A stretch of DNA of 64,000 nucleotides. It comes from a virus. Taxonomy: Duplodnaviria > Heunggongvirae > Uroviricota > Caudoviricetes. Shown in pieces: positions 2,317 to 64,000 of this stretch. Numbering within the stretch: the stretch's first letter is position 1; each line of letters begins with the position of its first letter. The notes below the pieces were generated by a model. It was not told the origin of the DNA, searched no databases, and was given only the letters and a program-made list of their open reading frames with translations. The position numbers and the translations under genes were made by a program. Location: the IMG/VR virus record IMGVR_UViG_3300028602_000006, one strand, 5' to 3'.

Positions 2317-2424
2317 ATGATGGAAGTACAAAAATATATTAGGGAAAACGGTCTCGATAAACTTCGGGAAGAATTTTCGATAATTGTTACCGATTATCCT
2401 GACCGAATTGGAGCAATATTATGA
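2317..2424 (+). other. 35-aa leader ORF homologous to the N-terminus of the RNA-ligase-like gene at 7102, translationally coupled (ATGA) to the nuclease-helicase gene
   Basis: Hand translation gives MMEVQKYIRENGLDKLREEFSIIVTDYPDRIGAIL. This aligns with MTMHVQKYLREKGLKSLIDEFHIDVREYDDRIV of the 7102 ORF at roughly 60 percent identity. Its stop TGA at 2422-2424 overlaps the ATG at 2421. Confidence 0.5.
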
Positions 2425-4619: not shown

Positions 4620-4684
4620 ATATTATTGACATTGCTTGTCGGATATGTTAATCTTTTCATATCTTAAATGGTAAAGGATATTTA

Positions 4685-5881
4685 ATGAGTCAAGAAAAAA
4701 TATTGGATGCTCAAGCTGTTAGAAGTGTTTATGAGAAGTTTTCTATAGATTTGCCAAATATAGGCAATCTACAGAACGTTTTTACTCCTTATTCGCTTTG
4801 CAAGGATATGATTGGACGCCTGAAGAAGTATAAGAGGAAGTTTGAAGGAGCGAACTTCTCTGTTTTTAATCTTGAATTTGCTGAAGTTTTAATGTATGAT
4901 TATGGAGTTAAGGCAAATCAGATTTGGTTCTTTACTGATTGTGTTGAGAAGAGCAAATTCGCTCAGTTGAATAGGTATGCGGGGTTGAATGTCGAATTGG
5001 TTAATTTAAGCCGATTCTTACGGGAGAAGATTACTATGAAATTTGATGTTGTTATTATGAATCCGCCTTATCAGGCCCCTAAAGCCAAAGAGCACGAAGG
5101 GAGAGGAAAATGTGGAACATCGCTGTGGGAAGATTTTGTTAGGAAATCCTTTGAATTGGCGAAAGATGATGGATATGTTTGTGCTATTCACCCTAATAGG
5201 TGGAGAAGACCCGAGGGCAAAATTGGCGAATTAATTAAGTCAAAACAAATTCATTATCTTGAAATGCATGGACTGGAAGACGGAAGGAAAACATTTTCTT
5301 GCCAAACCGATTATGATTGGTATATTGCTCAAAACAAAAAATCAGAGACCAATACGCAAGTTGTAGACTATGATGGTGAATCAAATTCAATTGATTTGAA
5401 AAACGCTCCTTTCATTCCCAACTCCAATGTGAAAGATGTTTTGTCTCTCGTCGCAAAAGAAGGAGAAGAAAAAGTCAATTTGTTATGGAACTGTGAATAT
5501 CATACTCAAGCAAGAGCAAAAGACGGAACGATGTCACCAATACAAACCGATGAATTTAAATACCCTTGTGTTTATTCTGTAACAATCAAAGGAGAAGTTA
5601 AGTTTTGGTACTCAAGCAAAAAAGAACAATTTTTTGGAATTCCTAAGGTCATATGTTGCAATGGTCATACTATGCCAATTGTTGACAAAAATGGGGAGTA
5701 CGGATTAACTCAATTCGCATTTGGAATAGCTGATAAAAAAACAAATTTAGAAAAAATACAAAATGTTATGAATTCTGATGAATTCAGGAAAACAATAATG
5801 GGTTATAGAGATAATGGTGGCAATGTTTATGACAAGAACATGATAGCAACTTTCCGCAAAGATTTTTGGAACGAAATATGA
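4685..5881 (+). CDS. N6-adenine DNA methyltransferase (NPPY) with C-terminal putative target-recognition region
   Basis: VVIMNPPYQAP is a motif IV. Upstream NVFTPYSLCKDMI is a motif X-like element. No clear FxGxG motif I in this ORF. Confidence 0.6.
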   Translation: MSQEKILDAQAVRSVYEKFSIDLPNIGNLQNVFTPYSLCKDMIGRLKKYKRKFEGANFSVFNLEFAEVLMYDYGVKANQIWFFTDCVEKSKFAQLNRYAGLNVELVNLSRFLREKITMKFDVVIMNPPYQAPKAKEHEGRGKCGTSLWEDFVRKSFELAKDDGYVCAIHPNRWRRPEGKIGELIKSKQIHYLEMHGLEDGRKTFSCQTDYDWYIAQNKKSETNTQVVDYDGESNSIDLKNAPFIPNSNVKDVLSLVAKEGEEKVNLLWNCEYHTQARAKDGTMSPIQTDEFKYPCVYSVTIKGEVKFWYSSKKEQFFGIPKVICCNGHTMPIVDKNGEYGLTQFAFGIADKKTNLEKIQNVMNSDEFRKTIMGYRDNGGNVYDKNMIATFRKDFWNEI

Positions 5882-6453
5882 AAACCACCACAAAAACTTG
5901 TACCAAACGCCAAAATCGAAAAAAACAAACTGCTGAGGATTTTACTCCGGCATGGTTGGTTAATCAAATGCTCGACAAGTTAAATGAATATGGAAAAGAA
6001 TCATGGGAAGAAGGGAAAACTTTTCTTGATCCTGCTTGCGGGAATGGAAATATGCTCGTATGTGTTTTGAAGCGTAAAATAAAACTAGGACATGATCCAT
6101 CAGAGGCATTGAAAACTATCTATGGAACCGACATAATGGATGATAATATCAAAGAGTGTCGCTTAAGGCTCCTTAAAATTATTCAAGAAGAAGGAATTAA
6201 AATAACACTTGAGCACATTAAATCTGTGTTTAATAATATTATTGTAACGAGATTGAGTAGATACAAAAGTGGATCTCTTGACTATAATTTCAAATTCAAA
6301 AACAAAGCATCGCATAAAGATGTTATTAAGTGGTTAGACGGAATACAGAACCACAACTGGCTTGAGTTAGTGGGACACGAAAACATTAATGCCATCATAA
6401 AAAATGACGTTGAAGCTAGTTTTGTTGAAGAGAAATTTGCCGCATTCTTTTAA
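5866..6453 (+). CDS. Methyltransferase N-terminal-like fragment (motif X + motif I + post-I, no NPPY)
   Basis: FTPAWLVNQML, LDPACGNGNMLV (FxGxG-type) and IYGTDIMDD. Overlaps the previous ORF by 16 nt in another frame. Confidence 0.45.
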   Translation: MERNMKTTTKTCTKRQNRKKQTAEDFTPAWLVNQMLDKLNEYGKESWEEGKTFLDPACGNGNMLVCVLKRKIKLGHDPSEALKTIYGTDIMDDNIKECRLRLLKIIQEEGIKITLEHIKSVFNNIIVTRLSRYKSGSLDYNFKFKNKASHKDVIKWLDGIQNHNWLELVGHENINAIIKNDVEASFVEEKFAAFF

Positions 6454-8601: not shown

Positions 8602-9411
8602 TTGAAAGGAATAAATATGAAGATACATTTGTTGACGATTGATCCTCAGCGAGATTTCTGTAGTCCAAACGGCGCTCTTTTTGTTCAGGATGCAGATCAA
8701 GACATGATTCGTTTAGCGGCAATGGTTGACCGTTTGCGCAATAAAATTGATGATATCCACGTTACGCTGGATAGCCACAATGAAGTAGACATTGCTCACC
8801 CTATATTCTGGATTGATTCTAACGGAGCGCATCCTAATCCCTTTACTATTATTACAGAAGAGGATGTTGTCAAGGGTGTATGGACAACTACTAGGCCAAC
8901 ATGCCGCCAGCGAGCAGTTGATTATGTTAAAGCCTTAGCTTCCAACGGGCGCTACCCTCTTTGTATTTGGCCTCCTCACTGTATTATCGGTACAGAAGGA
9001 TGGACAATTCAGCAGCCTCTTGCTGACTCATTGTCAAATTGGTGCAAAGATCGCTTTAAGAAAGTAGATTATCAGGTTAAGGGTTCAAACGTATTTACTG
9101 AGCACTATAGCGTTTTCAGGGCAGATGTAATAGATCCGTCTGATCCATCAACGATGTTAAACACTGATCTCATTAAGGTTATTTCTGAAGCTGACGAAAT
9201 TTTGATCGCTGGCGAAGCAAGAAGCCATTGTGTCAATCATAGTTTTCGTGATCTTATCGGGGAACTTGGCAAGGAACACGCTCAGAAGTTCATTCTTCTT
9301 GAGGACGCTATGAGTGATGTAACGGGATTCGAAAATCTTGGAAAACAGTTTTTCGATGATATGATAGCTCTCGGCGTAAAATCAACCACAACTAAAGATT
9401 ATCTTGCATAA
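8602..9411 (+). CDS. Isochorismatase-family cysteine hydrolase (nicotinamidase PncA-like)
   Basis: N-terminal LLTIDPQRDFC (Asp of the D-K-C triad) and C-terminal GEARSHCVNHS (catalytic Cys context). Confidence 0.5.
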   Translation: MKGINMKIHLLTIDPQRDFCSPNGALFVQDADQDMIRLAAMVDRLRNKIDDIHVTLDSHNEVDIAHPIFWIDSNGAHPNPFTIITEEDVVKGVWTTTRPTCRQRAVDYVKALASNGRYPLCIWPPHCIIGTEGWTIQQPLADSLSNWCKDRFKKVDYQVKGSNVFTEHYSVFRADVIDPSDPSTMLNTDLIKVISEADEILIAGEARSHCVNHSFRDLIGELGKEHAQKFILLEDAMSDVTGFENLGKQFFDDMIALGVKSTTTKDYLA

Positions 9412-11309: not shown

Positions 11310-12185
11310 ATGAATACAGATAGCTATTTTGAAATAGGTAACTCTCATGAAGTTTGCCAAGATTTTGCAATTTCCGGCAATATTAATGAGAATATAAGTT
11401 TTGCCATTGTAACGGACGGATGCACGACGTCTCATAATCAGTGCGCCCAAGTAGATACAGGGGCCAGAATTTTAGCCTATTCCGCAAGAGAAGCCTTAAA
11501 AAAGATTTGGGCAGATAAGGATTCAACAATATTCGAAAACACGACTCAAGAAATGGTTAGTGAATTTTTACGGAACCAATCAATTGTTACAACTAGATTG
11601 ATTGAACGTCAACTTGGTCTAGATCCATTATGTGCCGACTGTACGCTTGTTGTGGCTGTTGCAGATAAATTCGGGAATGCTCATTCTTTTGTATACGGTG
11701 ACGGATCTGTTTTTGTACAATTAAAGGATGGGTCGCAACATATGATGGATGTGACATTTTTGAGTGGAGCGCCTCTTTATTTGTCCTATCAAACAGATGA
11801 ACCCAGAAAAATTGCATATATGGGTGTTTATGGTAATCTTCCAGTCCTTATTGATCGTTATATTTTGGACGGAGGAGAAATAGAAACAAAAAACTCTAAC
11901 CAGATTTTAGCATATGATTATGGTTTATATGGAGCTTGCAATTCTCAATGGAAGGACGTTGATTTTATATCTGTAACATCCGATGGCGCTAAAAGTTTCT
12001 TGAAAAATGAGGGAAATGAAACAAACACAGTCCCTCATATTAAAATAATGAACGAATTCAATGCTATCAAAAACAGAAATGGAGTTTTCATTCAAAGAAG
12101 AATGAAGACGATGGGGAAGTCTAATAAGAAATTAAATATCTCTCATTACGATGATATTTCTATATCTGCCATTTTAGTTGGATAA
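11310..12185 (+). CDS. PP2C-family Ser/Thr phosphatase-like protein
   Basis: FAIVTDGCTTSH resembles the PP2C metal-binding xxDGHGG motif. GDGSVF lies downstream. Placed between the vWA and kinase genes. Confidence 0.45.
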   Translation: MNTDSYFEIGNSHEVCQDFAISGNINENISFAIVTDGCTTSHNQCAQVDTGARILAYSAREALKKIWADKDSTIFENTTQEMVSEFLRNQSIVTTRLIERQLGLDPLCADCTLVVAVADKFGNAHSFVYGDGSVFVQLKDGSQHMMDVTFLSGAPLYLSYQTDEPRKIAYMGVYGNLPVLIDRYILDGGEIETKNSNQILAYDYGLYGACNSQWKDVDFISVTSDGAKSFLKNEGNETNTVPHIKIMNEFNAIKNRNGVFIQRRMKTMGKSNKKLNISHYDDISISAILVG

Positions 12186-15186: not shown

Positions 15187-17250
15187 ATGTCAATTGAACA
15201 AAAAATAAGTATATGTTTCGGGCAAATTGAGGTCGCTCCCGGTCTCCCTAGGGTCAACACTGAAAAAATGTTGAAGTATATCAAAGAAGCTAAAGCTGAA
15301 GCATCGGATCTATTGATATTCCCAGAATTATGCATTCCGGGATACCTTCTTGGAGATATGTGGGAACGTCCTGATTTTCTAGAAGATTGTGAAGAATGCG
15401 GTAAGAAAATAATTGAAGCTTCTCAAGGAATAACTATAGCCTTCGGGAATGTCAAAACAGATCCTAAAAATAAAAACGAAGACGGCAGAATCCGTAAATA
15501 TAATTGCTGTTTTATAGCATCAAACGGGCAATTGGTCACAACTGTCACAAAAACTTTACAGCCAAACTACAGGGAATTTGATGATAATCGCCACTTTTAT
15601 GACAAGCGTAAGCAATTGACTGATTCATATCTTTCAGAGCCAAGTACAAAGGTTTCATTTTCTGAATTCATTGATAAGGCCTATGAGCCATCCTTAACAA
15701 TAAATGGAATTAAGATTGGATTCTTACTCTGTGAAGACGCTTGGGATACAGATTATTCATTCTCTCCTATAGATGTACTCGCACCCAAATGCGATCTGAT
15801 AGTCAATATGAGTTGTTCTCCGTTTACCATGGGGAAGAACCAAAAAAGGAACAGGCTTTTCTCTCAAAGAGCTAAAAATAATAATGTTATGATTGCCTAT
15901 ATAAATAATGTGGGCATTCAAAATAACGGGAAAACAATTTATACTTTCGATGGGAATAGTTGTCTTTATGATATTAATGGTGCGCAGTTTGACCTTTCTG
16001 CTCCTTTTGAAGAAAGCCTTGAAGTTTTAAGCTTGGATTTAGATGCTCGTACAGGATCATATGAAGAGAGCGCCATTGGTTCGTCAAGCGATGATATTGA
16101 AGATTTGTATTCATCAATTTGTTATGGAATCGAAAAATTTCTTCAGCAGATAGGAGTTAATAAAGTAGTAATTGGTGTATCCGGCGGGATTGATTCGGCT
16201 GTTGTTGCGGCGTTGTTTTCTGAAATTCTTCCTCCGGAAAATATTTATCTTATTAACATGCCTAGCTCTTTTAATTCTCAAACCACAAAAGACTTGGCAA
16301 AAGACTTGGCTAAAAATCTGGGATGTAAATATAGTATAATTCCTATTGGATGTAGTATTGATCACACTAGAGAACAATTATTAAAAGAAGGATTTGATGT
16401 TAGTAAATTCGTTTTCGAGAACATTCAGGCAAGAGATCGTTCTTCCAGAATTCTTGCGGCCATTGCTTCTTCAGTAGGCGGGGTTTTCACTTGCAACGCC
16501 AATAAGTCTGAGGCAACCGTAGGGTATACGACTCTCTATGGGGATTTGTCCGGATTTTTGTGCCCATTAGCTGACGTATGGAAGACAGACGTGTACAAGC
16601 TTGCTGAGTATATAAATGATAGTAGTGATGAGATGATCATTCCCTATGGCATACTCGCAGTTAAGCCTTCGGCAGAATTAAACAACGATCAAAATGTCGA
16701 TGAGGGGAAGGGAGACCCTATTATTTACCCCTATCATGATTTGCTATTTAGAAGTTGGGTAGAAAAGTGGGAGAGGGCAACCCCCGCTGACATTCTACAA
16801 TGGGTCATAGATGATGATTTAGAAGGGAAATTAGGCTTTGAGGATGGGGATATAGTTGCCAAGTATTTTGGAGGAGATAAAAGAGCTTTTGTTGCCGACT
16901 TGGAAAGATGGTGGAATCTATATGACGGATTTGCTTATGCGAAAAGAATTCAGGCTCCTCCTGTTCTTGCGATCAGCCGCAGAAGTTACGGATTCGATCA
17001 CAGAGAAAGTTTAACCGCTCCATTTTATAGCCAAAAATATTACAAACTTCGTATGCAATATTTGGGAGAAGATTTGTCCATGAAAGAGGTTTATGACAAT
17101 TTAAAAACTATAAAAGAGAATGTCATTTTTGTTATGGCGAAAGAAGCTGGATTAGATATGGGAAAGTTTACAACCAAGGATTTAGCTCTTAAGGGATTCA
17201 TGTCCAAGATCTATGATTTATCCGATGAAGATATGGTTCATTGGGAGTGA
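15187..17250 (+). CDS. nadE: Glutamine-dependent NAD+ synthetase (nitrilase/CN-hydrolase domain + NAD synthase PP-loop domain)
   Basis: N-domain FPELCIPGY (Glu) and LLCEDAWD (Cys). C-domain PP-loop VIGVSGGIDSAVVAAL. 687 aa, typical of the fused form. Confidence 0.8.
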   Translation: MSIEQKISICFGQIEVAPGLPRVNTEKMLKYIKEAKAEASDLLIFPELCIPGYLLGDMWERPDFLEDCEECGKKIIEASQGITIAFGNVKTDPKNKNEDGRIRKYNCCFIASNGQLVTTVTKTLQPNYREFDDNRHFYDKRKQLTDSYLSEPSTKVSFSEFIDKAYEPSLTINGIKIGFLLCEDAWDTDYSFSPIDVLAPKCDLIVNMSCSPFTMGKNQKRNRLFSQRAKNNNVMIAYINNVGIQNNGKTIYTFDGNSCLYDINGAQFDLSAPFEESLEVLSLDLDARTGSYEESAIGSSSDDIEDLYSSICYGIEKFLQQIGVNKVVIGVSGGIDSAVVAALFSEILPPENIYLINMPSSFNSQTTKDLAKDLAKNLGCKYSIIPIGCSIDHTREQLLKEGFDVSKFVFENIQARDRSSRILAAIASSVGGVFTCNANKSEATVGYTTLYGDLSGFLCPLADVWKTDVYKLAEYINDSSDEMIIPYGILAVKPSAELNNDQNVDEGKGDPIIYPYHDLLFRSWVEKWERATPADILQWVIDDDLEGKLGFEDGDIVAKYFGGDKRAFVADLERWWNLYDGFAYAKRIQAPPVLAISRRSYGFDHRESLTAPFYSQKYYKLRMQYLGEDLSMKEVYDNLKTIKENVIFVMAKEAGLDMGKFTTKDLALKGFMSKIYDLSDEDMVHWE

Positions 17251-18857: not shown

Positions 18858-20192
18858 ATGGCATCGTTAGTTGAGAAAGTACATCTGATAAAGTCTGACC
18901 CAGTAAACAATAACAATAAGTTTTGGATTGGAGAATTATATGATGATGATTCCGTGGTTTGTAGATGGGGAAGAGTCGGAGATACTGGGCAAAGTAAATC
19001 ATTCCCCAGCGGAGGAAAGAAATTTTTAGATTCAAAAGTCCGCTCTAAAAAGAAATCAGGACGTAATGGTGAAATCGCATATCGAGAAATAGAAATTATA
19101 GACGGAGCAAGCGTTCCTGCACCCAAAACATCCTCTACAAAAACTACCAGCGGTAGCCAACTATCTCAAATCGCCAAAAAGCAAATTCAAACTGGTGGTA
19201 ATCCTGAGGCACTTAAACTCATTGATTACCTTGTTAAAGTTAACGCTCATCAAATCGCAAGTATGACGGGTGGCCAAATTACTTATAACTATGATACAGG
19301 TCTTTTCCAAACTCCGATGGGTCTTGTTTCTCAGGCTAATATTGATGAAGCGAGAGATAAAATTACAGGTATTGGTGATATTGTAGCAAAGAAAAAGTAC
19401 AATGATCCTAATCTTATGGAACTTACTAGGGATTATCTTATGCTTGTCCCTCAGGATATTGGGCGTAAAAGGCTTGAACTTGATGATTTTTGGTGCGATC
19501 TAACTGCCGTTCAGAAACAGGATGCTATTCTTGACGGGCTTCAAGCTTCTTTAACGCAAGCAGCTAAAACCCCCGTAAAGTCCGTCAAAGATAATAAGCC
19601 CGAAGAGCAAATATTTCAAACTAAGCTCGAACTCGTTTCCGATCCTAAGGCGATTAAGAAAATAAAGGACTTATACCATAAAACTCGTCAGTCTATGCAT
19701 AATTGTTATCACCTTGATGTCAAAAAAGTATATACAATTGATATTAATACGGTTCAAGATGCGTTCAAAAGAGACGGCGCTAAGATGGATAATGTTTGGG
19801 ATCTTTGGCATGGGACTAGAGCGAGTAATCTACTCTCCATTCTTAAGGGCGGATTGATTATTCCGCCGTCAAATGCATCAAATGTTACTGGGCGTATGTT
19901 CGGAAATGGGGTTTACGCTTCTGATCAGTCCACAAAGGCTCTTAACTATGCTTATGGATATTGGGGCGGGGGCAAATCAGATGACAACTGCTTTATGTTC
20001 CTTCTTAAAATGGCCATGGGTAATTATTACACTCCTAAAAGTCCGTTTTCAGCTAACTCTGCTCCCAAAGGCTATGATTCCACCTTTGCACAGGCTCATA
20101 AGAGCGGGGTATATAATAACGAAATGATTGTATATAGGACATCCCAAATAAATCTTAGGTATTTGGTGGAATTTAGTCCGAATGGTAAATAA
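18858..20192 (+). CDS. Poly(ADP-ribose) polymerase-like protein (WGR domain + PARP catalytic domain)
   Basis: N-terminal WGR (FWIGELYDD...CRWGRVGDTGQ). Catalytic H-Y-E triad context HGTRASN...GIYFA-like GNGVYASDQ...YNNEMIVY. Confidence 0.75.
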   Translation: MASLVEKVHLIKSDPVNNNNKFWIGELYDDDSVVCRWGRVGDTGQSKSFPSGGKKFLDSKVRSKKKSGRNGEIAYREIEIIDGASVPAPKTSSTKTTSGSQLSQIAKKQIQTGGNPEALKLIDYLVKVNAHQIASMTGGQITYNYDTGLFQTPMGLVSQANIDEARDKITGIGDIVAKKKYNDPNLMELTRDYLMLVPQDIGRKRLELDDFWCDLTAVQKQDAILDGLQASLTQAAKTPVKSVKDNKPEEQIFQTKLELVSDPKAIKKIKDLYHKTRQSMHNCYHLDVKKVYTIDINTVQDAFKRDGAKMDNVWDLWHGTRASNLLSILKGGLIIPPSNASNVTGRMFGNGVYASDQSTKALNYAYGYWGGGKSDDNCFMFLLKMAMGNYYTPKSPFSANSAPKGYDSTFAQAHKSGVYNNEMIVYRTSQINLRYLVEFSPNGK

Positions 20193-26386: not shown

Positions 26387-26675
26387 TTTGTCTGAACAAT
26401 CATTCAAAAATTCGCTCCATACTAATGAACGAACAAACATGAGTACCATTGATGATGACTATATGTTTGTTGCTTCAACTGATATGCCCGCATTATTGCC
26501 CAAACGGAAATTGGAAATATATCATAAGTGTTTATTGCCGGGTTGCGAAAATATGACATCACATAATGGAGGATATTGTAGCGCAGAACATTGTCGTCTG
26601 CATCGTAAAGGGATTAGTTTTCCACCTCTGAAGCCCCCTCATCAAGTAGCTCTTGTTCATCCGGCAATAGAATAG
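26358..26675 (+). CDS. Hypothetical protein with C-terminal zinc-ribbon-like motif
   Basis: CLLPGCEN...GGYCSAEHCRLH. Confidence 0.35.
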   Translation: MREKMETVIDLSEQSFKNSLHTNERTNMSTIDDDYMFVASTDMPALLPKRKLEIYHKCLLPGCENMTSHNGGYCSAEHCRLHRKGISFPPLKPPHQVALVHPAIE

Positions 26676-26937
26676 ACAGGAGTTTTTGCAATTCACCAAC
26701 ATGGACTTTCTCTTCATCTGCAATATCCTGTAGAGTTTTTTTCACAGTTTCATTGTCAGTTGAATCAACTACAGTCTCATATTGCTTTATTGCATCTTCT
26801 TCGGCTATGATGGCGTCCCTGATCGCCCTTGTAAGCTCTCTATCATTAAGCATTTCCATCGTTTCGACATTATCTAAATGTTGCGCTTTTCTTAATAAAA
26901 TCATATTTCCTGAATCTATATGCATGGTTTTCTCCAA
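26614..26937 (-). CDS. Ferritin-like/rubrerythrin-like four-helix-bundle protein
   Basis: Only clear minus-strand gene in the first 47 kb. Paired ExxH-type segments AIIAEEDAIKQYE and ADEEKVHVGEL. Followed by an AT-rich gap. Confidence 0.45.
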   Translation of the reverse strand: MEKTMHIDSGNMILLRKAQHLDNVETMEMLNDRELTRAIRDAIIAEEDAIKQYETVVDSTDNETVKKTLQDIADEEKVHVGELQKLLSILLPDEQELLDEGASEVEN

Positions 26938-27383
26938 ACAAGTGTTAACTATATTACCCTATATAATTCTATATTTTGACGGAGGCTTCCTTTGTCATAT
27001 TCTATGAATTAAAACTTGAAATGTCATATCATTTATACTATATTAATATAAGGAAATTTGGTGATTATTAAAGATATAACGATTGGGGAATATAGATATG
27101 GCAACAATGAGTTCTTTTCATGAACAATGTCGGAATAAACAGGCTGATTCCGCTGGCAGGCGGCGGATTAGGTTCGATTGGAAGAGTTTCCGTTTTAAAT
27201 GTGGTCGTTTTTTTCATATAATTCATCCTGTCAAGGGATACAAAGACTATATTTGGTGGGAATGGGAAGATAAATGATTTTTTCCGTAGATTTTATGTAT
27301 AATAGTAAAGGTTTAAAAAAAATATTAATGAATATTATTGATGCATCTTAATTATTAGATGTTAGGAGAACAAAAAAACTTAT

Positions 27384-28553
27384 ATGGAAATAAAATCTTT
27401 GTTGGTCGATGAACCTCCGTCTATTATTGCTGATTCTGTAATGGAATCAGCAATAACTTTACCTATCCAAAACGAAATCAAACGAATTGAGCGATGGGAC
27501 AACTGGCAATGGCAAATGCAAAACCGCATTAGAACAGTTTCTCAATTAAACAAGCAGTTTCCTTACCTAAATACGAGTGGCATATATGATGCATCTGTGA
27601 AATTTCCGTTTGCAATTACTCCGTATTACGCATCTTTAATTAGGAATGCCGATTTGTCAGACCCCATATTTGCAATGAGTGTTCCTCAGGCGGAAGAACT
27701 ATTGAATCCATCTTATTTGAAAGAAGACCCGCTTGAAGAAGAAAAGTACATGCCTGTTCCGGGATTAGTCCATAGATACCCAGACAGAGCGTTGTTAATC
27801 ACAACATCGTCCTGCGCCATGTATTGCCGTCATTGTACTAGGAAAAGAGTTGCGGGTAAAAGAGATACTTGCGTTAATGAATCTCAGCTTAGTAAAATGA
27901 TAGATTATTTGAGGATTCACCCAGAAATCCATGATGTAATTATATCTGGAGGAGATCCGCTAACAATGTCCACTGGTAAATTGGAATCGATAATTAAACA
28001 AGTCAGATCTGTTGAGAGCGTTGATATTATCAGAATAGGAACTAGGACTCCTGTTGTCCTCCCAATGAGAATAACATCCGTATTGGTCAATATGTTGAAG
28101 AAATATCATCCAATATATATTAACACTCATTTCAATCACCCAAATGAATTAACTCCGCAGGCTCTTGAGGCCTGTTCAAAATTAGTAAATGCAGGTATTG
28201 TTCTCGGTAATCAGTCTGTTTTATTAAAGGGTGTTAATGACGACGCTACAACAATGGAAACCCTGCTCCGTGGGTTATTAAAAGCAAGAGTAAAACCATA
28301 TTATTTATTCCAATGTGACTTAATAAGCGGTACAGAGCATTTTAGAACCCCGATATCAAAGGGAATTGAAATTATGGAGTATCTAAGGGGAAGACTAAGC
28401 GGATTGGCTATCCCATCTTATATTGTTGATCTTCCCAATGGAGGGGGTAAAATTCCAGTCCTTCCTAGCTATATTGTGGCATTTAAAGATGAATATACCT
28501 TATTCAGGAACCCAGAGGGCGATTTGATCCGCTATCCTTGCCCCATCCACTAA
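27384..28553 (+). CDS. Lysine 2,3-aminomutase family radical SAM enzyme (KamA/EpmB-like)
   Basis: CAMYCRHCTRK (CxxxCxxC) and ISGGDPLT signature. 389 aa. Confidence 0.75.
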   Translation: MEIKSLLVDEPPSIIADSVMESAITLPIQNEIKRIERWDNWQWQMQNRIRTVSQLNKQFPYLNTSGIYDASVKFPFAITPYYASLIRNADLSDPIFAMSVPQAEELLNPSYLKEDPLEEEKYMPVPGLVHRYPDRALLITTSSCAMYCRHCTRKRVAGKRDTCVNESQLSKMIDYLRIHPEIHDVIISGGDPLTMSTGKLESIIKQVRSVESVDIIRIGTRTPVVLPMRITSVLVNMLKKYHPIYINTHFNHPNELTPQALEACSKLVNAGIVLGNQSVLLKGVNDDATTMETLLRGLLKARVKPYYLFQCDLISGTEHFRTPISKGIEIMEYLRGRLSGLAIPSYIVDLPNGGGKIPVLPSYIVAFKDEYTLFRNPEGDLIRYPCPIH

Positions 28554-28573
28554 CTAAAAAGTCTTATTTTATT

Positions 28574-28597
28574 CTTGCATTATCATGGCATATATAG
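28574..28597 (+). promoter_or_regulatory. Promoter-like TTGCAT-N12-TATAGT
   Basis: Same N12 spacing as the TTGACT-N12-TATGA(G/T) family. Lies upstream of 28610. Confidence 0.3.
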
Positions 28598-28609
28598 TAA
28601 TATATTACC

Positions 28610-28867
28610 ATGAAGATAGAAGAAAAATTATGGCGGACTTTAATCAGGGTAGAACGATATGACAGCAAGAATATCTACGTGGTAATTCCGGGATATAACG
28701 TTAATGAAGAAATTACAATACCAAAATCAATAATTCCCGAAGATGTCTTAGTGGTTATTGAAACTGAAATTGACGAAGAAGAAATTTATCGTTTTCATGT
28801 ACAATGCAATATCGGGGCAAAAAGCAAAGAAGACTTGATTTTTGCTCCTCCTTGGGAATGCGAATGA
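28610..28867 (+). CDS. Hypothetical protein
   Basis: Stop overlaps the GNAT start (ATGA). Confidence 0.35.
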   Translation: MKIEEKLWRTLIRVERYDSKNIYVVIPGYNVNEEITIPKSIIPEDVLVVIETEIDEEEIYRFHVQCNIGAKSKEDLIFAPPWECE

Positions 28868-29304
28868 AAGACTTTGCCATAGAACACTACTCGGATCAGT
28901 GTAAGATTGACGATTTATGGGATTTCATAGAAGATAACCTATCGCTAAAAGGATTCCCAAGCCCTGCGTTCTGGATTACTAAACGGGCATTAGAACTGCG
29001 AAGAAAAAATAATGAGATTTTGCTTGCAATGATCGATAATAAAATGATAGGATGTATTGTATTAAATAGAAGCCTTATTGAAATCTTATGCATTAAAAGG
29101 AGATACAGAAAGCGTGGAATAGGTAATAAGCTAGTAAGATATGCGGAAGAATTACTTAAAAAAGACGCTAGAAGGAAATACTTAAGAGTTGATAGCTTTA
29201 AACCTTTTAAAGCTAAAAACTTTTATGATAAGATGGGGTTCGAAACATATAATCAAAGCGAATACTGCGATACATGGCACTTTAGGAGAAAACTAAATGA
29301 ATGA
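28858..29304 (+). CDS. GNAT-family N-acetyltransferase
   Basis: Acetyl-CoA motif A CIKRRYRKRGIGNKLVRYAEELL (R/Q-x-x-G-x-G/A). Start at 28858 or 28864 assumed rather than 28804. Confidence 0.6.
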   Translation: MRMKDFAIEHYSDQCKIDDLWDFIEDNLSLKGFPSPAFWITKRALELRRKNNEILLAMIDNKMIGCIVLNRSLIEILCIKRRYRKRGIGNKLVRYAEELLKKDARRKYLRVDSFKPFKAKNFYDKMGFETYNQSEYCDTWHFRRKLNE

Positions 29305-29617
29305 CGGAAGCATAGCTGGTCAAATTATATTGAGTATTGTTTTTGCGATACTATTGGTTGTTTCATATAATAAATCCACCAAAGCAGATCAAGCTGTTTA
29401 TGATCGCTATGAGGCGCTTAGTTCAGGAACGGTAGAGCGTGAAGATACCCCTTATAAAGACTCGGTTGTTAATCGTTACGAGGGGCAACGTGAATTTTGG
29501 GGCGGAATGATGTTCGCCAGTATAATGATTTTATGCCTCGTTTGCCCTATCTTCCGCTATCTTATATTTTCCATCCTCGGAGTGGCATTATTGGGAATGT
29601 TTGGGAGTAAGGATTAA
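29297..29617 (+). CDS. Membrane protein, hypothetical
   Basis: Three TM helices. Confidence 0.35.
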   Translation: MNDGSIAGQIILSIVFAILLVVSYNKSTKADQAVYDRYEALSSGTVEREDTPYKDSVVNRYEGQREFWGGMMFASIMILCLVCPIFRYLIFSILGVALLGMFGSKD

Positions 29618-29640
29618 CCATACTTTTCTCTTGCTTTTTA

Positions 29641-30165
29641 TTGGGTAATACTTATAATTTTGACATGAATATTTTTGCTACAGATAAATGTCCGGTAGAG
29701 TCTGCGAAGGCTCTTCCGAATATTTTGGTTAATAAAATGATTGTAGAATCCGCTCAATTGCTTAGCACTGCTCACTATGTATTGGATAAAAACATGAAGG
29801 GATACAAAGCCACTCATATAAATCATCCATGCGCTAAATGGTGTAGGGAATCGAAAGGCAATTATGATTGGCTATTCAATCATTTCGATGCTCTCTGCGA
29901 CGAATATGAGGCTCGAAATGGTAAAACTCATAAATCGAGCGAGCTAAAAGATATATTGTCTGTATGCCCATCTTCCATAGCACAAAAAGGCGTTACAGAA
30001 TTTGCGAAAGCAATGCCTGACACTTTTAAGGAGAAAGGCTCTGCAATAGATTGTTATATTGCTTACTTAATATCAAAATTTGAAGGATGGGAAACTAGAA
30101 CGGATAAAAGGAAAATAACGCCAAGCTGGGGATGTCGCAACGCTCCTAAGTGGCTCAGGAGGTAA
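29641..30165 (+). CDS. Hypothetical protein
   Basis: No motif recognised. Confidence 0.35.
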   Translation: MGNTYNFDMNIFATDKCPVESAKALPNILVNKMIVESAQLLSTAHYVLDKNMKGYKATHINHPCAKWCRESKGNYDWLFNHFDALCDEYEARNGKTHKSSELKDILSVCPSSIAQKGVTEFAKAMPDTFKEKGSAIDCYIAYLISKFEGWETRTDKRKITPSWGCRNAPKWLRR

Positions 30166-30166
30166 C

Positions 30167-30907
30167 ATGGCAACTTTTTGGTTTATTAGACATGGGGAAT
30201 CTACAGCGCAGGCCAAGCCCGATGTAATAGGTGGTAGATCTCCGGACGCCGAAATAACCACCGTAGGTGCTTCGCAAGCTAGGGCGTTGGGATACTGCTT
30301 GGGGAAGGATAAAACACTTATTGGTGGATTTGATGACCTATGGAGATCAACGCTTATTCGAGCCAAGCAAACTTGTGATCTTATGATGGCAGAGATGGGA
30401 AGTTCATGCGAGCGCCCCATGAATACCCCGTCACCAATAGTAGATTCACGTCTAATTGAACTTGATCAAGGTAAATGGCAAGGGGAAGATAGAAAAAGTG
30501 TATATACTCCGCATATGATCCAACTGATAGAATCGAATACGTTGCATTTTTGCGCTCCGGGAGGAGAATCACAATTTCAAGTAACAGAGAGAATGCTTTC
30601 TTGGTTATATGATGCTTTACGCTTGGCTAGAACCAATCGAACTTTAAGAGAATCAATAATGCCATCGTTACGCAGTTTAAATGAATCTGATTACAATATA
30701 GCAGTCGTAGGACATGGATATGCGATTAGATGTTTATTGTGCAATCTATTTGATATACCAAACCGACAGGCCTTTCATATTAAGATCGATAACTGCTCAA
30801 TTACGAAAGTAAGAATATGGAGTGACGATTTCGACCATTTGGAAAATAATCTAAAATGTAATTTGGATTGCCTAAATTTTGTGTACCCTGATGTTAAATA
30901 TGCTTGA
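30167..30907 (+). CDS. Histidine phosphatase (phosphoglycerate mutase-like superfamily)
   Basis: N-terminal RHGE motif FWFIRHGESTAQ. Second His context VVGHGYAIR. Confidence 0.6.
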   Translation: MATFWFIRHGESTAQAKPDVIGGRSPDAEITTVGASQARALGYCLGKDKTLIGGFDDLWRSTLIRAKQTCDLMMAEMGSSCERPMNTPSPIVDSRLIELDQGKWQGEDRKSVYTPHMIQLIESNTLHFCAPGGESQFQVTERMLSWLYDALRLARTNRTLRESIMPSLRSLNESDYNIAVVGHGYAIRCLLCNLFDIPNRQAFHIKIDNCSITKVRIWSDDFDHLENNLKCNLDCLNFVYPDVKYA

Positions 30908-32455: not shown

Positions 32456-33028
32456 ATGAATGAAACAAACAGAGATATTTTGAAAAACCATTTTAGTCGT
32501 ATTGATTTTGACCCTAGGTTTAAATCAGATAACATTATTTATTGGTTTGACGGAACAGAATACTCATTCTTGAGCAATTTTCATATGCACCCCATAAAAT
32601 ATAATGGGAAAGTTTATGCATCAACGGAACACGCCTTTCAAGCCGCAAAAACCCTCGATGATATGTGGAAAGAAGCTATCCGTATTACAAAAACTCCCGG
32701 AGAAGCTAAGAGAAAGGGAGGTTTATGCCCCTTGAGACCCGATTGGGAGGAAGTAAAAAATTCAGTCATGGCCGAAGTATTGGAAATAAAGTTTCAAGGC
32801 CCTTATCTACAAGACGCATTACTTAACACCTATCCGAATTATCTTGTTGAAGGTACGCTATGGCATGATAACTGGTGGGGGATTTGCCTATTGAAAGATT
32901 GCAAGAAATGTGAAGATAAGAAGGCGTTAAACATGTTAGGAATTCTTTTAATGGAATTGAGAGAAAAAATACTAACAAGACGATTACAGGAAGAGGTTGA
33001 TCTAGTTAGGGGCATTGAAGGTAATTAA
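32456..33028 (+). CDS. NADAR (YbiA-like, DUF1768) domain protein
   Basis: YWFDGTEYSFLSNFHMHPI...ASTEHAFQAAKT...WHDNWWG are hallmark NADAR blocks. Confidence 0.7.
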   Translation: MNETNRDILKNHFSRIDFDPRFKSDNIIYWFDGTEYSFLSNFHMHPIKYNGKVYASTEHAFQAAKTLDDMWKEAIRITKTPGEAKRKGGLCPLRPDWEEVKNSVMAEVLEIKFQGPYLQDALLNTYPNYLVEGTLWHDNWWGICLLKDCKKCEDKKALNMLGILLMELREKILTRRLQEEVDLVRGIEGN

Positions 33029-38425: not shown

Positions 38426-39682
38426 ATGTCAAAAAAGATCAAGTTTTTCAAAATAAATAACGTTCAAGTAGTGCATATACCTTCCGAAAGCAATATATCG
38501 GCATTCGGAGTCCAAGTTGTAGCGGGAGCAAGATATGAAAACTTCTCCAACGCAGGTGTTGCTCATTTTGCAGAGCATATGTTTTTCAAAGGGACAGGGC
38601 TATATGATTGGAAACAGCAAGATCGATTATTCGCAAAAGCTGGCGCATCTCAGAACGCTTACACAGGTAATGATCTTGTTATGTACCATGCAACATTCCC
38701 AGAGATAAATAAAGACAAAGTTATACATCTTATAATGGACATGTTCTTTAACGCTACATTCCCCGAAGATGAAATGGAAAAAGAACGTCAAGTAATAATG
38801 GAGGAGAAACGAAGACTTTTAGATGATGCGGATGGTTTCTTTTACGACTCAATCGGAGAGAACCTTTTAGAATGGCAAATAGGTCATTCAACCATAGGAA
38901 CATTTGAAACCATAAAATCATTAAAGAGGAAAGATATTATTGAATTTCTTAACTCAAGATGCGGTATCGAAACCATAACAATTATTTATGTTGGCAAGGA
39001 AAGCAATGATCTCAATAAAATAATTGAAGACAATATTCCTGCCAATCATCCGTATCTCAGCAACGGGAAAACTATTTTGTATGGGCAGAAGTTGTGGAAT
39101 AGATCGTCGGTAGATAACGCAGATAAAATAAAATTAACTGTCCATCGAAATGATATAACTCAAGCTCAGCTAAACATGTCGATTGCAGGACTTCCATTTA
39201 ATTCTAAACACCGGTTTGCAGAAAAGATTTTGCTTCGGGGTCTTGGAGGAGGGATGTACTCAAAATTATTTTCACGTATTCGCCAAGAACTAGGATTATG
39301 TTATAGCGTTGGGTTTTCTTCTTATGATCTAGCTCTCCCTGAATATCAGATGGTCTTTTTGTATGGCGGAACCGCTCCAGAAAATATTCCTCAGTTTATG
39401 GAAGAATCGGAAAAAGTAATCGACACCGTAATTAGAGATGGGATGGAAGAAGAGATATTTGAATGCGCAAAAGCTGATCTTTTAGCATCCACTCTTCGTT
39501 CAACAGAAACATCAATGGGCAAACTAGAGTATTACAATTCCAGAGCGGCTTTTGGAGAATGTAAACCGATTGATGGTATTGTTCACAATATACAAAATAT
39601 AACGATTGATGAATGCAATGAAGTTGCCAATATTTTGTTTAGCGGTAATCGGAATTGGTCGGTCATGATCCCATTGGAGTAA
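38426..39682 (+). CDS. M16-family (insulinase/pitrilysin-like) zinc peptidase
   Basis: Inverted zinc motif HxxEH in GVAHFAEHMFFKGT. Downstream EEKRRLLDD (Glu ligand region). Confidence 0.7.
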   Translation: MSKKIKFFKINNVQVVHIPSESNISAFGVQVVAGARYENFSNAGVAHFAEHMFFKGTGLYDWKQQDRLFAKAGASQNAYTGNDLVMYHATFPEINKDKVIHLIMDMFFNATFPEDEMEKERQVIMEEKRRLLDDADGFFYDSIGENLLEWQIGHSTIGTFETIKSLKRKDIIEFLNSRCGIETITIIYVGKESNDLNKIIEDNIPANHPYLSNGKTILYGQKLWNRSSVDNADKIKLTVHRNDITQAQLNMSIAGLPFNSKHRFAEKILLRGLGGGMYSKLFSRIRQELGLCYSVGFSSYDLALPEYQMVFLYGGTAPENIPQFMEESEKVIDTVIRDGMEEEIFECAKADLLASTLRSTETSMGKLEYYNSRAAFGECKPIDGIVHNIQNITIDECNEVANILFSGNRNWSVMIPLE

Positions 39683-43330: not shown

Positions 43331-43792
43331 ATGAAAAAGTGGTTTAAAAATATATTCTTTAGTTTGTTCCCATGTAATGAAACCTGTCTGTCTAAATATA
43401 GATGGTATAGAAAATGGCATGGTGGTGTATGGAACTTATGGCTTACTGATTTTTGCGGACGAATATGGGTTCACTATGGTTCCGTCTATGTCCCTCAATC
43501 ATCTAAGCTAATAAAAATAGAAAATTATAATAACCACAATAATATTGAGATAGACCCTCTTAAAAATGAGTTAATGGGAATAGTATCAGCACAGATAGGT
43601 GTAAGTAAAAACAATATAGATACTACCTCCGATTTAATAGATATTGGAGGAGATTCTCTAGATTATATTAGTATCATAATGCATGTGGAGGAGGAATTTA
43701 ACGTAGAGATCCCGGACGATAAATTGTCATCTTTAAAGTCTATAGACGATATGTACGATTATCTCATTAGTAAAGGTGTAAAGATTTCCTAA
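43331..43792 (+). CDS. Carrier-protein (ACP/PCP-like) domain protein with Trp-rich N-terminal extension
   Basis: C-terminal LIDIGGDSLDYISIIMHVEEEFNVEIPD matches the phosphopantetheine attachment motif (GxDSL). Confidence 0.55.
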   Translation: MKKWFKNIFFSLFPCNETCLSKYRWYRKWHGGVWNLWLTDFCGRIWVHYGSVYVPQSSKLIKIENYNNHNNIEIDPLKNELMGIVSAQIGVSKNNIDTTSDLIDIGGDSLDYISIIMHVEEEFNVEIPDDKLSSLKSIDDMYDYLISKGVKIS

Positions 43793-47501: not shown

Positions 47502-48731
47502 CTACCCAGACACTAAAGATGTCTGGGTTTCGTGACTCGCAGGCTCGTCTAACGACAACGCCTCCTCACGTTTTTGTTTTGATTCCGACTGTATTCCACA
47601 ACCAGAATTGTAAATCATTAATCCTTGACTGAGGGCTTCGCCTGCAAGTCTCAGCCCTTGCTCCAATATATTTTTTGAAGCATTGATGTCTCTATCTAGT
47701 TTAGCACCACAAACAGGACAAACCCATTTTCTATCTTTCAATGTCAAATCCTGATTAACAAACTTACACTTGTTACAGGTTTTGCTTGAAGGGAAGAACT
47801 TATCTATTTGAATTAGGTTTCGTTCATTCCATTCCGATTTATACTTCAGTTGTCTTAGGAATTCGCTCCAAGAACAATCTGAAATACTTTTTGCTAGGTT
47901 ATGGTTTTTCATCATATTTGCAACAGATAAGTCCTCAACACAGATCGTTTGATTCTCACGAACTATTTGAGTTGTTATGTTATGGATATGATTTAGCCTA
48001 CTGTTTGTGATTTTCTCATGAACTCTAGCAACTTTGATTCGTTGTCTATTCCTACTACTTGATCCTTTTTGTTTTTTACTGAGTTGTTTCTGCTCATAAG
48101 AAAGTTTTTTAGCATACTTATTAGTAGTTTTTATGTTCTCATAGATTTTGCCATCAGAACATATTGCTAAATCTTTAATTCCTAAATCAACTCCTACTTG
48201 ATTTTTGTTCTTTTTATATGGAGCGTGTTCGGTTTCACAGGTAATAGAAACAAAATACTTACCTGATGGATTTTTGGAAATGGTTGAAAAGAGTATTGTT
48301 CCTTCAAGTGGTCTATCCTCTTTTACCTTGATGGGTTGTTTGAATTTAGGTATCTCTAGTTTCCCATTCTCATACTTAGTTGATTGAGGAATACGAAATG
48401 ATTGTTTGTCTTTCTTGGATTTGAATCGTGGGAACTTACCTTGTTTTGAAAAGAATCGGTTGTAAGCTACTTCTAAGTCTCTTAATGAAGCTTGAACTGA
48501 CTGAGAGTTAGTTTCTTTAAGCCAACTATATTCGTCTTGTTTCTTTAGCTTAGTGAGAGAGGATGCATTGTCATAATAGTTTAAAGAAGTGTTGTTTTCA
48601 AGATAGGCGTTTTTTCGTTCATTAAGAAAATGGTTCCATACAAATCTTTTAGCCCCGAAGTGTTTAGCCAATAGGACTTCTTGATCCTTAGTTGGGTATA
48701 TTCGATATTTAAATGACTTCTTTATTTTCAT
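47502..48731 (-). CDS. tnpB: TnpB (IS200/IS605-family OrfB, RuvC-like plus zinc finger)
   Basis: C-terminal CNKCKFVNQD...WVCPVCGAKLDRDINASKNI. The 3' end overlaps the perfect hairpin CCCAGACA-CTAAAGA-TGTCTGGG (47505-47527). No adjacent tnpA. Confidence 0.75.
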   Translation of the reverse strand: MKIKKSFKYRIYPTKDQEVLLAKHFGAKRFVWNHFLNERKNAYLENNTSLNYYDNASSLTKLKKQDEYSWLKETNSQSVQASLRDLEVAYNRFFSKQGKFPRFKSKKDKQSFRIPQSTKYENGKLEIPKFKQPIKVKEDRPLEGTILFSTISKNPSGKYFVSITCETEHAPYKKNKNQVGVDLGIKDLAICSDGKIYENIKTTNKYAKKLSYEQKQLSKKQKGSSSRNRQRIKVARVHEKITNSRLNHIHNITTQIVRENQTICVEDLSVANMMKNHNLAKSISDCSWSEFLRQLKYKSEWNERNLIQIDKFFPSSKTCNKCKFVNQDLTLKDRKWVCPVCGAKLDRDINASKNILEQGLRLAGEALSQGLMIYNSGCGIQSESKQKREEALSLDEPASHETQTSLVSG

Positions 48732-55798: not shown

Positions 55799-56212
55799 AT
55801 GGAGCTAAAAAATCCGAATAGAATATTTCATGAAGAAAAAAAATATGTGTACTCTTGCCAGTATCATGTAATCTTTTGCCCAAAGTACCGAAGAAGTGTA
55901 CTAATAAATGGAATAGAGAAAAGGTTGAAGGAACTTATCCATGAGAAGCAAAAGGAATATAACTATGAAGTAATAGACATAGAAGTAATGCCAAACCATG
56001 TGCATCTTCTATTAGATATAAATCCTAAAATGGGGATATGGTCTATTATTAGCAAAATTAAAGGATATACATCTAACACACTTCGTAAAGAATTTCCTGT
56101 TCTAAGATCTAGATTACCTACACTATGGTCTGGTTCAAAATTTATCGGTACAGTCGGATCTATATCACTAGATGTTATCAAAAAATATATTGAGGAACAA
56201 AAGAACAAATGA
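55799..56212 (+). CDS. tnpA: IS200-type Y1 HuH transposase TnpA
   Basis: CQYHVIFCPKYRRSVL, HuH MPNHVHLLL, catalytic Tyr region KGYTSNTL. 137 aa. Confidence 0.85.
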   Translation: MELKNPNRIFHEEKKYVYSCQYHVIFCPKYRRSVLINGIEKRLKELIHEKQKEYNYEVIDIEVMPNHVHLLLDINPKMGIWSIISKIKGYTSNTLRKEFPVLRSRLPTLWSGSKFIGTVGSISLDVIKKYIEEQKNK

Positions 56213-59825: not shown

Positions 59826-60065
59826 ATGAAATCATCAAAATTTGCAAGGATAATGAAAGATATGGAAAATAAAAATCATAAGGTCGTTAGAGTCTCTAAA
59901 ACAGAATTTGAACTAGATACGGGAGACATTTACCCAATCCCGTTTGATTTGGGATATGAACCAACGCTAGAAGAATTCCAAAAATTTATAAATGATTCCA
60001 AGTCGCTTATATCTGAATTCATTAAAAAGTCAGAAAAGGAGAAGCGAAATGCTAGAAAAAGATAA
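59826..60065 (+). CDS. Hypothetical protein
   Basis: SD AAAGGAGTATGAAAAATG. Confidence 0.4.
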   Translation: MKSSKFARIMKDMENKNHKVVRVSKTEFELDTGDIYPIPFDLGYEPTLEEFQKFINDSKSLISEFIKKSEKEKRNARKR

Positions 60066-63781: not shown

Positions 63782-64000
63782 TTCTGTCAGCAAAACAATT
63801 GGCTCTTAGAGAGTATTATCAAGAAGTATTCAAGGAGTGGGAAACTCTTGATAATAACTTGCAGAATGTTTTTACGCCTTATGATCTTTGTGAGAAAATG
63901 ATAGATAAGGTTTGCAAGTATTGTGAACTAAAGGGCAAAAAGATATTGGTTACGAATTTGGAATTTGCTATAGTTCTTGTTGAAAGAGGGATTGATCCTA
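63779..64000 (+). CDS. Methyltransferase paralog (5' part; continues beyond window)
   Basis: LQNVFTPYDLCEKMI...NLEFAIVLVERG parallels LQNVFTPYSLCKDMI...NLEFAEVLMYDYG of 4685. ATGA overlap with the helicase gene. Confidence 0.5.

Follow-up and report, generated by a model that had tools for sequence, protein, structure and literature searches.

A gene for a lysine 2,3-aminomutase-like radical S-adenosylmethionine (SAM) enzyme (KamA) located shortly upstream of a GNAT acetyltransferase gene in a phage-like sequence raises the question of whether the two genes form a beta-lysine pathway or are neighbours with separate histories. The locus spans positions 27,384 to 30,907 of IMG/VR record IMGVR_UViG_3300028602_000006, a stretch of 64,000 nucleotides (hereafter the window) representing the first 64 kb of the 182,571-bp metagenomic contig ENA ERZ27250894 k141_2398814, of which the first 71 kb of 182.6 kb were inspected. 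Judged by its gene content, the contig looks like a large phage. An initial annotation of the window had proposed that the two genes act as a pair of the ablA/ablB or kamA/yodP type. The explanation that best fits the present data, to which we give about even chances, is that KamA is a solitary auxiliary metabolic gene (AMG) of the phage, that it makes beta-lysine and was captured from a bacterium of the Planctomycetes-Verrucomicrobia-Chlamydiae (PVC) type, and that the GNAT gene belongs to a separate module.

The kamA-like gene (27384..28553, + strand) encodes a protein of 389 amino acids (aa), assigned as a KamA-type lysine 2,3-aminomutase (LAM) of minimal form by its match to the family model TIGR00238, its match to the structure 2A5H and residue mapping. 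Both sequence signatures reported initially are present, CxxxCxxC as CAMYCRHC at residues 144-151 (nt 27813-27836) and SGGDPLT at residues 188-194 (nt 27945-27965), with SGGD at 188-191. The scores of TIGR00238 (322.3 bits, cutoff 199.2) and of the Pfam models LAM_C (58 bits, cutoff 26.7) and Radical_SAM (38.4 bits, cutoff 29.5) all exceed their thresholds, and the protein aligns over 352 residues, almost without gaps, to the LAM of Clostridium subterminale (CsLAM, PDB 2A5H; E 4e-124), so the membership in the KamA family suggested by the initial annotation is well founded. In an alignment of 97 sequences, phage residues C144, C148 and C151 and the pyridoxal phosphate (PLP) lysine K356 correspond to C125, C129, C132 and K337 of CsLAM, and R153, D312 and D349 correspond to R134, D293 and D330. 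In CsLAM, Arg134 is taken here to bind the carboxylate of lysine, and Asp293 and Asp330 its epsilon-ammonium group. The equivalents of these three residues are invariant in all 95 other aligned KamA sequences, with Glu at position 330 in E. coli EpmB. The gene therefore does not represent an unrelated radical SAM clade devoid of the lysine-binding residues, an outcome that would have contradicted the proposed assignment, since the counterparts of R134, D293, D330 and K337 are all retained.

The phage protein thus shares with CsLAM the radical SAM and PLP fold, the CxxxCxxC and SGGD motifs, the PLP lysine, and the arginine and two aspartates. It differs in having Asp287 in place of the zinc ligand Cys268 (CsLAM numbering), in terminating at about position 370, one residue past CsLAM 369, so that it has neither a multimerisation domain nor the CxCxxC zinc site of the C terminus, and in belonging to another clade. 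The gene is not decaying: its ratio of nonsynonymous to synonymous substitution rates (dN/dS) against the orthologue in a sister phage, L001 (94% identity at the aa level and 87% at the nt level), is 0.033, the lowest value in the neighbourhood, which indicates strong purifying selection.

Models of related aminomutases with other substrates gave scores below their cutoffs. The glutamate 2,3-aminomutase model TIGR04368 scored 440 bits against 650, and positions 293 and 330 are both Asp in the phage protein; Ruzicka and Frey reportedly described in 2007 that Lys and Asn stand in place of Asp293 and Asp330 in glutamate 2,3-aminomutase. The arginine 2,3-aminomutase model TIGR04468 scored 364 bits against 600. 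Identity with EpmB (YjeK) was considered and rejected, the EpmB equivalog model scoring 251.9 bits against 369.3 and E. coli EpmB being an outgroup with 33% identity. EpmB, itself a KamA paralogue, resembles the phage protein in having neither tail nor multimerisation domain (PMC2821294), and differs from it in Glu at position 330 and in its EpmA partner, a partner that was not seen on the inspected part of the contig. From the conserved residues we infer that phage KamA has lysine 2,3-aminomutase activity, and from its clade that the product is probably (S)-beta-lysine. As tail-less EpmB has 0.1% of the LAM activity of the clostridial enzyme and makes (R)-beta-lysine (PMC2821294), the activity level and the stereochemistry of the phage enzyme are offered here as predictions.

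The initial annotation had proposed to place the protein phylogenetically among KamA, EpmB and AblA. In a neighbour-joining (NJ) tree rooted with E. coli EpmB, it falls within the KamA clade of the PVC superphylum and apart from EpmB; its position relative to archaeal AblA and to glutamate and arginine aminomutases, whose reference sequences lie outside the tree, rests on hidden Markov model (HMM) scores. The closest cellular relatives (58-69% identity) are without exception KamAs of PVC bacteria, namely of Kiritimatiellia, Victivallales/Lentisphaerae and Planctomycetota; identity to the classical LAMs found in Firmicutes and Bacteroidales is 50-56%. The proteins of the window, of L001 and of a further phage-like contig, L007, whose KamA is a short form with 70% identity, form a group with a bootstrap value of 100, which joins a Kiritimatiellia sequence (L002, JBFXGK010000026) with a value of 99. 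The phage group is nested inside the PVC clade (bootstrap 100, with the viral sequence L015 included), a topology that places the origin of the gene among PVC-type bacteria.

In the PVC genomes, KamA belongs to a characteristic gene cluster. In all 14 non-duplicate loci, KamA is directly followed by a gene for a D-Ala-D-Ala-ligase-like ATP-grasp protein, and in 12 of them the order is KamA, two ATP-grasp genes and a GNAT of about 155-165 aa, the latter in some cases joined with the second ligase in one protein. In the remaining two loci, the GNAT is lost to the contig end (L026) or apparently split by a frame change (L021). These loci are L002, L011, L013 and L021-L031 (e.g. L013 6001-10106), and their GNAT is RimI-like. 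The operon probably makes a small peptide that contains beta-lysine and may be acetylated; a literature search found no description of an operon of KamA, ATP-grasp and GNAT genes. Like the phage proteins, PVC KamAs have no zinc cysteines. Unlike them, they carry a conserved C-terminal tail of about 50 residues (GVWELASG...RR) and are accompanied by ligase genes and by a GNAT that is not orthologous to that of the phage. In the lineage of the window, the loss of the tail can be dated to after the capture. Short KamAs of cellular origin form a second group (L033, L050, L083, L088 and L089), in which KamA is immediately preceded by an ATP-grasp gene.

KamA genes are not rare among phages. When IMG/VR was searched with a profile, KamA relatives turned up on at least 107 viral contigs; 80 of these were retrieved, at least 16 of the sequences coming from contigs that exceed 200 kb. 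Among 75 complete viral KamA open reading frames (ORFs), 74 have the full set of seven residues for catalysis and lysine binding; the zinc cysteine occurs in none of the 75, and 72 extend no more than six residues beyond the position of CsLAM 369. Monophyly of all phage KamAs received 0% bootstrap support in the NJ tree, which points to several independent acquisitions. The neighbours of KamA were surveyed with Pfam on two ORFs each side of the gene in 56 non-redundant loci; in these 205 flanking ORFs, no family recurs beside KamA among the families listed. A GNAT, an R2K ATP-grasp and a D-Ala-D-Ala-ligase-like protein came up once each, the GNAT in L113 and convergently oriented, and L113 was also the sole match when our own GNAT profiles were run over all flanking ORFs. 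An R2K-clade ATP-grasp ligase lies two genes downstream of KamA in L019 (L019/L174 1700-2575), and a SET-domain protein is encoded two genes upstream of KamA in L018 (59-769); neither is recurrent.

Deposited phage genomes also carry the gene. The KamAs of Vibrio phages vB_VcorM_GR11A and GR7B, of Pseudomonas putida phages of the vB_PpuM- series and of the huge phages LR756500/501 resemble that of the window in being tail-less and zinc-less and in keeping the lysine-binding residues, and differ in being 35-47% identical, in having been acquired separately and in their gene neighbourhoods. In Vibrio phage vB_VcorM_GR11A (L010; MT366761 43921-56913) and Pseudomonas phage vB_PpuM-Voja-6 (L009; PP496442 161565-174692), a KamA of 35% identity with the lysine residues kept follows several large proteins without Pfam or PHROG match and stands just before topoisomerase II; two QueC-like genes lie upstream of KamA in GR11A. 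This cluster could be a pathway for a lysine-derived modification of nucleic acid or protein. A literature search on phage KamA or beta-lysine found nothing relevant. The records of GR11A and GR7B are already annotated as 'lysine 2,3-aminomutase', and the enzyme class is well known, so the gene does not represent a new kind of system.

Downstream of KamA, three genes on the + strand form a compact unit. The first, which begins 56 nt past the stop codon of KamA, encodes a small acidic protein of 85 aa (28610..28867) that is conserved as a partner of the GNAT; the GNAT acetyltransferase of 146 aa (28864..29304) begins 310 nt past the same stop; and a membrane protein of 106 aa with two strongly hydrophobic segments by hydropathy (29297..29617) overlaps the GNAT stop by 8 nt. 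The presence of a GNAT gene with motif A about 300 nt downstream of KamA, as initially described, is confirmed by the Pfam models Acetyltransf_10/7/1 (44-53 bits) and by the sequence RKRGIG at residue 82. The linkage of the genes by ATGA coupling, also described there, applies to the small ORF and GNAT, where TGA and ATG overlap at 28864-28867, but not to KamA, whose stop is separated from the small ORF by the 56 nt. An NCBIfam scan of the GNAT at E <= 0.01 returned RimI-like and generic GNAT models only (best 33.6 bits) and no match to AblB. Its AlphaFold2 model (pLDDT 81) gave 414 PDB GNAT matches at E <= 0.001, the top folds being generic GNATs and N-terminal acetyltransferases of the Ard1/Naa/RimI type. 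The small ORF has no relatives in Pfam, NCBIfam or PDB and shows a dN/dS of 0.097 against L001.

The GNAT falls into a narrow family of phage proteins that comprises 12 clusters. Homologues of the small ORF lie directly upstream of the GNAT in the KamA-less contigs L107 (E 8e-33) and L109 (E 4.5e-31), and the C-terminal half of the membrane protein is homologous to the ORF that follows the GNAT in L107/L108 (E 7e-17) and, more weakly, in L106, L003 and L109. Related phage contigs with this GNAT also share with the window the helicase-methylase module, orf260 and NADAR. The module without KamA was seen in L003-L006 and L106-L110, at least four related phage lineages, and no KamA was seen upstream of the GNAT within 8 kb in L106, 8 kb in L107 and 2.3 kb in L109. 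Since the small ORF, the GNAT and the membrane protein are found together in phages with no visible KamA, it is the GNAT, and not KamA, to which the small ORF is linked by ATGA coupling, and these comparisons establish the three genes as a separate, KamA-independent phage module. The module lies at 7655-9108 in L106, 7739-9054 in L107 and 2048-3391 in L109, and the start and stop codons of its genes overlap. Its surroundings in related phages are a variable region close to genes for UV repair (UvdE there, Pyr_excise in the window), and in L109 it adjoins CoaBC-like genes (Flavoprotein and DFP domains). The idea that the GNAT is a toxin with a small antitoxin (TacAT/AtaRT-like) found no support in Pfam or PDB, GNAT-toxin structures being absent among its top sequence and fold matches; no DUF1778 or other ribbon-helix-helix antitoxin family was matched by the acidic product of the small ORF in Pfam, NCBIfam or PDB.

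Given a solitary KamA, the following course of events may be envisaged. In the infected and probably anaerobic host, the enzyme would use its [4Fe-4S] cluster and SAM for producing a 5'-deoxyadenosyl radical, and the alpha-amino group, with the aid of PLP, would migrate to convert host L-lysine into beta-lysine. The gene would have been captured from a PVC-type bacterium, with the nearest sequence in Kiritimatiellia, where it is the first gene of the KamA/ATP-grasp/ATP-grasp/GNAT operon; the tail of about 50 residues would have been lost after capture, and KamA together with a small ferritin-like gene would have been inserted beside the older module of small ORF, GNAT and membrane protein. As to the fate of beta-lysine, we infer that it is most likely used by host enzymes such as the ligases of the parent operon; alternatively, the benefit to the phage may come from beta-lysine itself or from the draining of lysine. 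The window contains no gene for an ATP-grasp, EpmA-like or other ligase, nor does the annotation of the contig list one as far as 71 kb. A solitary AMG is favoured because the gene is the first step of a cellular operon, because of this lack of a ligase in 71 kb, and because phage KamAs generally have no partner.

Several observations weigh against this interpretation. The 71 kb inspected are part of a 182.6-kb contig, and a partner enzyme may therefore lie elsewhere on it. The contig is deposited at NCBI inside a metagenome-assembled genome labelled Synergistaceae, and neither the TnpA/TnpB proteins of the IS200/IS605 elements nor other protein clusters gave an informative cellular match pointing to the host, in which the parent operon is therefore hypothetical. 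The best-scoring equivalog, the AblA-type LAM model TIGR03820, reached 462.3 bits and not its cutoff of 525.4; the match covers positions 4-361 of the 417 of the model, with 362-417 unmatched, and the missing C-terminal tail is plausibly the reason for the low score. The full-length PVC relatives, however, score 499 and 513 bits, also below 525.4, so the whole clade may differ functionally from characterised LAMs. KamA is separated by one gene from the sole GNAT seen in 64 kb, on the same strand and with no predicted terminator between them, an arrangement that could be non-random. Finally, a GNAT of unrelated sequence starts 4 nt after KamA in Vibrio phage GR11A, an independent case of adjacency; the syntenic Pseudomonas putida phages lack this gene.

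The last two observations also feature in the main rival explanation, a doubtful possibility in our view, namely that KamA and the downstream GNAT act as an AblA/AblB-like pair yielding N-acetyl-beta-lysine as an osmolyte-like or detoxified product, the GNAT having been recruited secondarily from the existing phage module. The arrangement of KamA and GNAT is kept in the sister phage L001, and no terminator-like site was found between the genes in a scan of 26-33.2 kb, a region in which the counts of predicted promoters and terminators were at the level expected from shuffled sequence. Besides GR11A, small GNATs accompany KamA in other independent settings, the PVC operon and the IMG/VR locus L113. 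Searched against PDB sequences, the profile of the GNAT family matches best a putative streptothricin acetyltransferase (30 bits, E 3e-6), and enzymes of that class acetylate a beta-lysine moiety. Like AblA/AblB, which make N-epsilon-acetyl-beta-lysine, and Bacillus KamA/YodP, the window combines a protein with AblA as its best equivalog with a same-strand GNAT nearby; unlike them, it has a KamA below the AblA cutoff, no AblB match, a pairing not conserved beyond one sister phage and a GNAT of about half the size, AblB and YodP being two-domain proteins of roughly 270-290 aa. The nearest folds of the GNAT are protein N-terminal acetyltransferases. Orthology of the phage GNAT with that of the PVC operon was tested and rejected: BLAST identity is 28% over 82 aa, the score against a profile of the PVC-operon GNATs is 18 bits, below its generic Pfam scores, and both this match and that of hhalign are confined to the acetyl-CoA motif (motif A) region. 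The KamA-GNAT pair was seen only in the window and L001. The closest non-sister KamA, that of L007, is followed by a gene for an NHL-repeat protein and has no GNAT, and KamA is without an adjacent GNAT in 55 of the 56 viral loci. By a rough estimate, three GNAT-adjacent lineages in about sixty are close to chance. As the GNAT belongs to a separate phage module, the two-enzyme pathway proposed in the initial annotation is not supported by these data, and acetylation of beta-lysine by the adjacent GNAT is possible but unsupported.

Another explanation, which appears quite improbable, is that beta-lysine or bound lysine serves for the modification of a macromolecule, such as an EF-P-like factor, a virion protein or phage DNA, with tail loss opening the active site. 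The phage enzyme is tail-less like EpmB, in which the loss of the C-terminal multimerisation domain could admit a protein-bound substrate (PMC2821294), tail loss is uniform over independent phage clades, and the KamA of Vibrio and Pseudomonas phages is part of a conserved group of genes for large unknown proteins next to topoisomerase II, GR11A having the two QueC-like genes as well. Yet the arginine that binds the free alpha-carboxylate (R134 equivalent) is kept, the EpmB score is far under its cutoff, and no gene for an EpmA/lysyl-tRNA synthetase-like protein, an ATP-grasp protein or an amino-acid:DNA transferase occurs in the 71 kb inspected. Modification of EF-P was consequently rejected by the low EpmB score and by the absence of EpmA from the window and from the annotation out to 71 kb. 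Thymidine hypermodification, for which a radical SAM isomerase and an acetyltransferase were considered (Lee et al. 2021), was rejected as well: the known isomerase of this pathway, the radical SAM enzyme gp53 of phage M6, is like spore photoproduct lyase and not like KamA (PMC8989533), and the Pfam families 5-HMUDK and aGPT-Pplase are absent from the window. It seems very improbable that KamA boosts lysine fermentation of the host to acetate, butyrate and ammonia, raising ATP during infection of an amino-acid-fermenting anaerobe. Such a role would agree with the binning of the contig with Synergistaceae, which are amino-acid fermenters, with the established biochemistry of KamA as the first enzyme of the pathway, and with a solitary gene, as fits a single-step booster. 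The phage gene derives, however, from the ATP-grasp-linked PVC clade and not from the zinc-containing LAM clade of Firmicutes and Bacteroidales, and other phage KamAs occur in phages of Pseudomonas putida and Vibrio, for which, to our knowledge, no fermentation of lysine through beta-lysine has been described.

The solitary, beta-lysine-forming KamA remains our preferred explanation. A broader proposition, that the making of beta-lysine is a widespread phage strategy and that the repeated tail loss reflects selection for a new use, is considered unlikely. If true, it would represent a new phage-host interaction built on a beta-amino acid, with possible uses in the modification of phage DNA, virion or translation proteins, or in interference with a lysine-dependent host process or defence. 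Whatever its role, it is of value that a minimal lysine 2,3-aminomutase with intact residues recurs in more than 100 mostly large phage genomes with no dedicated partner. Why phages make beta-lysine is a testable question; phages available in culture, with Pseudomonas putida KT2440 and with Vibrio coralliilyticus as hosts, carry homologues. The analysis has further brought to light the bacterial operon of four genes described above, uncharacterised so far and conserved among Planctomycetota, Kiritimatiellia and Lentisphaerae.

Among the genes surrounding KamA, a ferritin-like protein of 107 aa (rubrerythrin/DUF2383/EncFtn-like; PF02915, 32 bits) is encoded upstream and divergently (26614..26937, - strand). 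Its gene is present in the same position in L001 with 94% identity and a dN/dS of 0.046, and has no match in any other locus sampled; among the phage relatives sampled it is thus present only alongside KamA. It may have arrived together with KamA, and it is conceivable that its product provides iron or oxidative protection for the Fe-S enzyme. A short ORF of 64 aa between the two genes (27083..27277, + strand) has 73% identity in L001 and no other match. The ferritin-like gene, the 64-aa ORF and KamA were found, among the related phages sampled, in the window and L001 only, and look like a lineage-specific insertion beside the older module.

The initial annotation had listed a membrane protein and a histidine phosphatase as the two downstream genes; both are present, but a gene between them had been overlooked. 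It encodes a Pyr_excise-like protein of the pyrimidine-dimer glycosylase family (29665..30165, + strand; PF03013, 36.9 bits; phrog_624, E 1.6e-53), and is also found in L001, with UvdE near the GNAT instead in related phages; it is a mere neighbour, outside the unit. The histidine phosphatase of branch 1 (30167..30907, + strand; PF00300, 96.6 bits; RHG motif) has a 44% identical homologue in the KamA-less L109/L110 and is absent at this position in L001. It belongs to the shared phage backbone and is not tied to KamA.

In the window as a whole, the GC content is 33-38%, almost all genes are on the same strand, and no tRNA genes were found. Comparison of the region with deposited phages at the nucleotide level gave a single weak match of 192 bp. 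PHROG and Pfam matches in the window include helicases, DNA methyltransferases, a T4-type RNA ligase, NAD synthetase, a PARP-like protein, NADAR, YopX and IS200/IS605. A set of genes related to NAD+ and ADP-ribose comprises an isochorismatase/nicotinamidase-like protein (faint match; 8602-9411), a glutamine-dependent NAD synthetase with CN_hydrolase and NAD_synthase domains (15187-17250), a protein with WGR and PARP catalytic domains (18858-20192) and a NADAR protein (32456-33028); the NadE and PARP genes are also found in the sister phage L001. How jumbo phages synthesise and use NAD+ is the subject of a published paper (PMC11662467).

Two diverged paralogous modules, located at 2421-6453 and at 60732-64000 (extending to about 65.5 kb of the contig; L105 10001-14787), contain a nuclease-like N-domain with a ResIII helicase, an Eco57I-like methylase and an N6 methylase. 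Their helicases are 28% identical, and the N-domain of the second copy stands alone as an ORF of 230 aa (30% identical). The helicase-methylase module, which also occurs in the related phage L106, resembles a restriction-modification or anti-restriction unit. The IS200/IS605 elements consist of a TnpA and TnpB pair and two more TnpB genes (47502-48731 on the - strand, 55799-57282 on the + strand and L105 14784-15872). Clustering at 90% identity or more puts TnpB into a group of 48 members, among them small contigs that bear the label Candidatus Glassbacteria and a JGI contig of 368 kb. Other genes of the window encode a PP2C-like phosphatase (11310-12185), an M16 (pitrilysin-type) peptidase (38426-39682), a 153-aa protein with a phosphopantetheine-binding carrier-protein domain (43331-43792) and a serine recombinase with a MerR-type helix-turn-helix (59992-60735).

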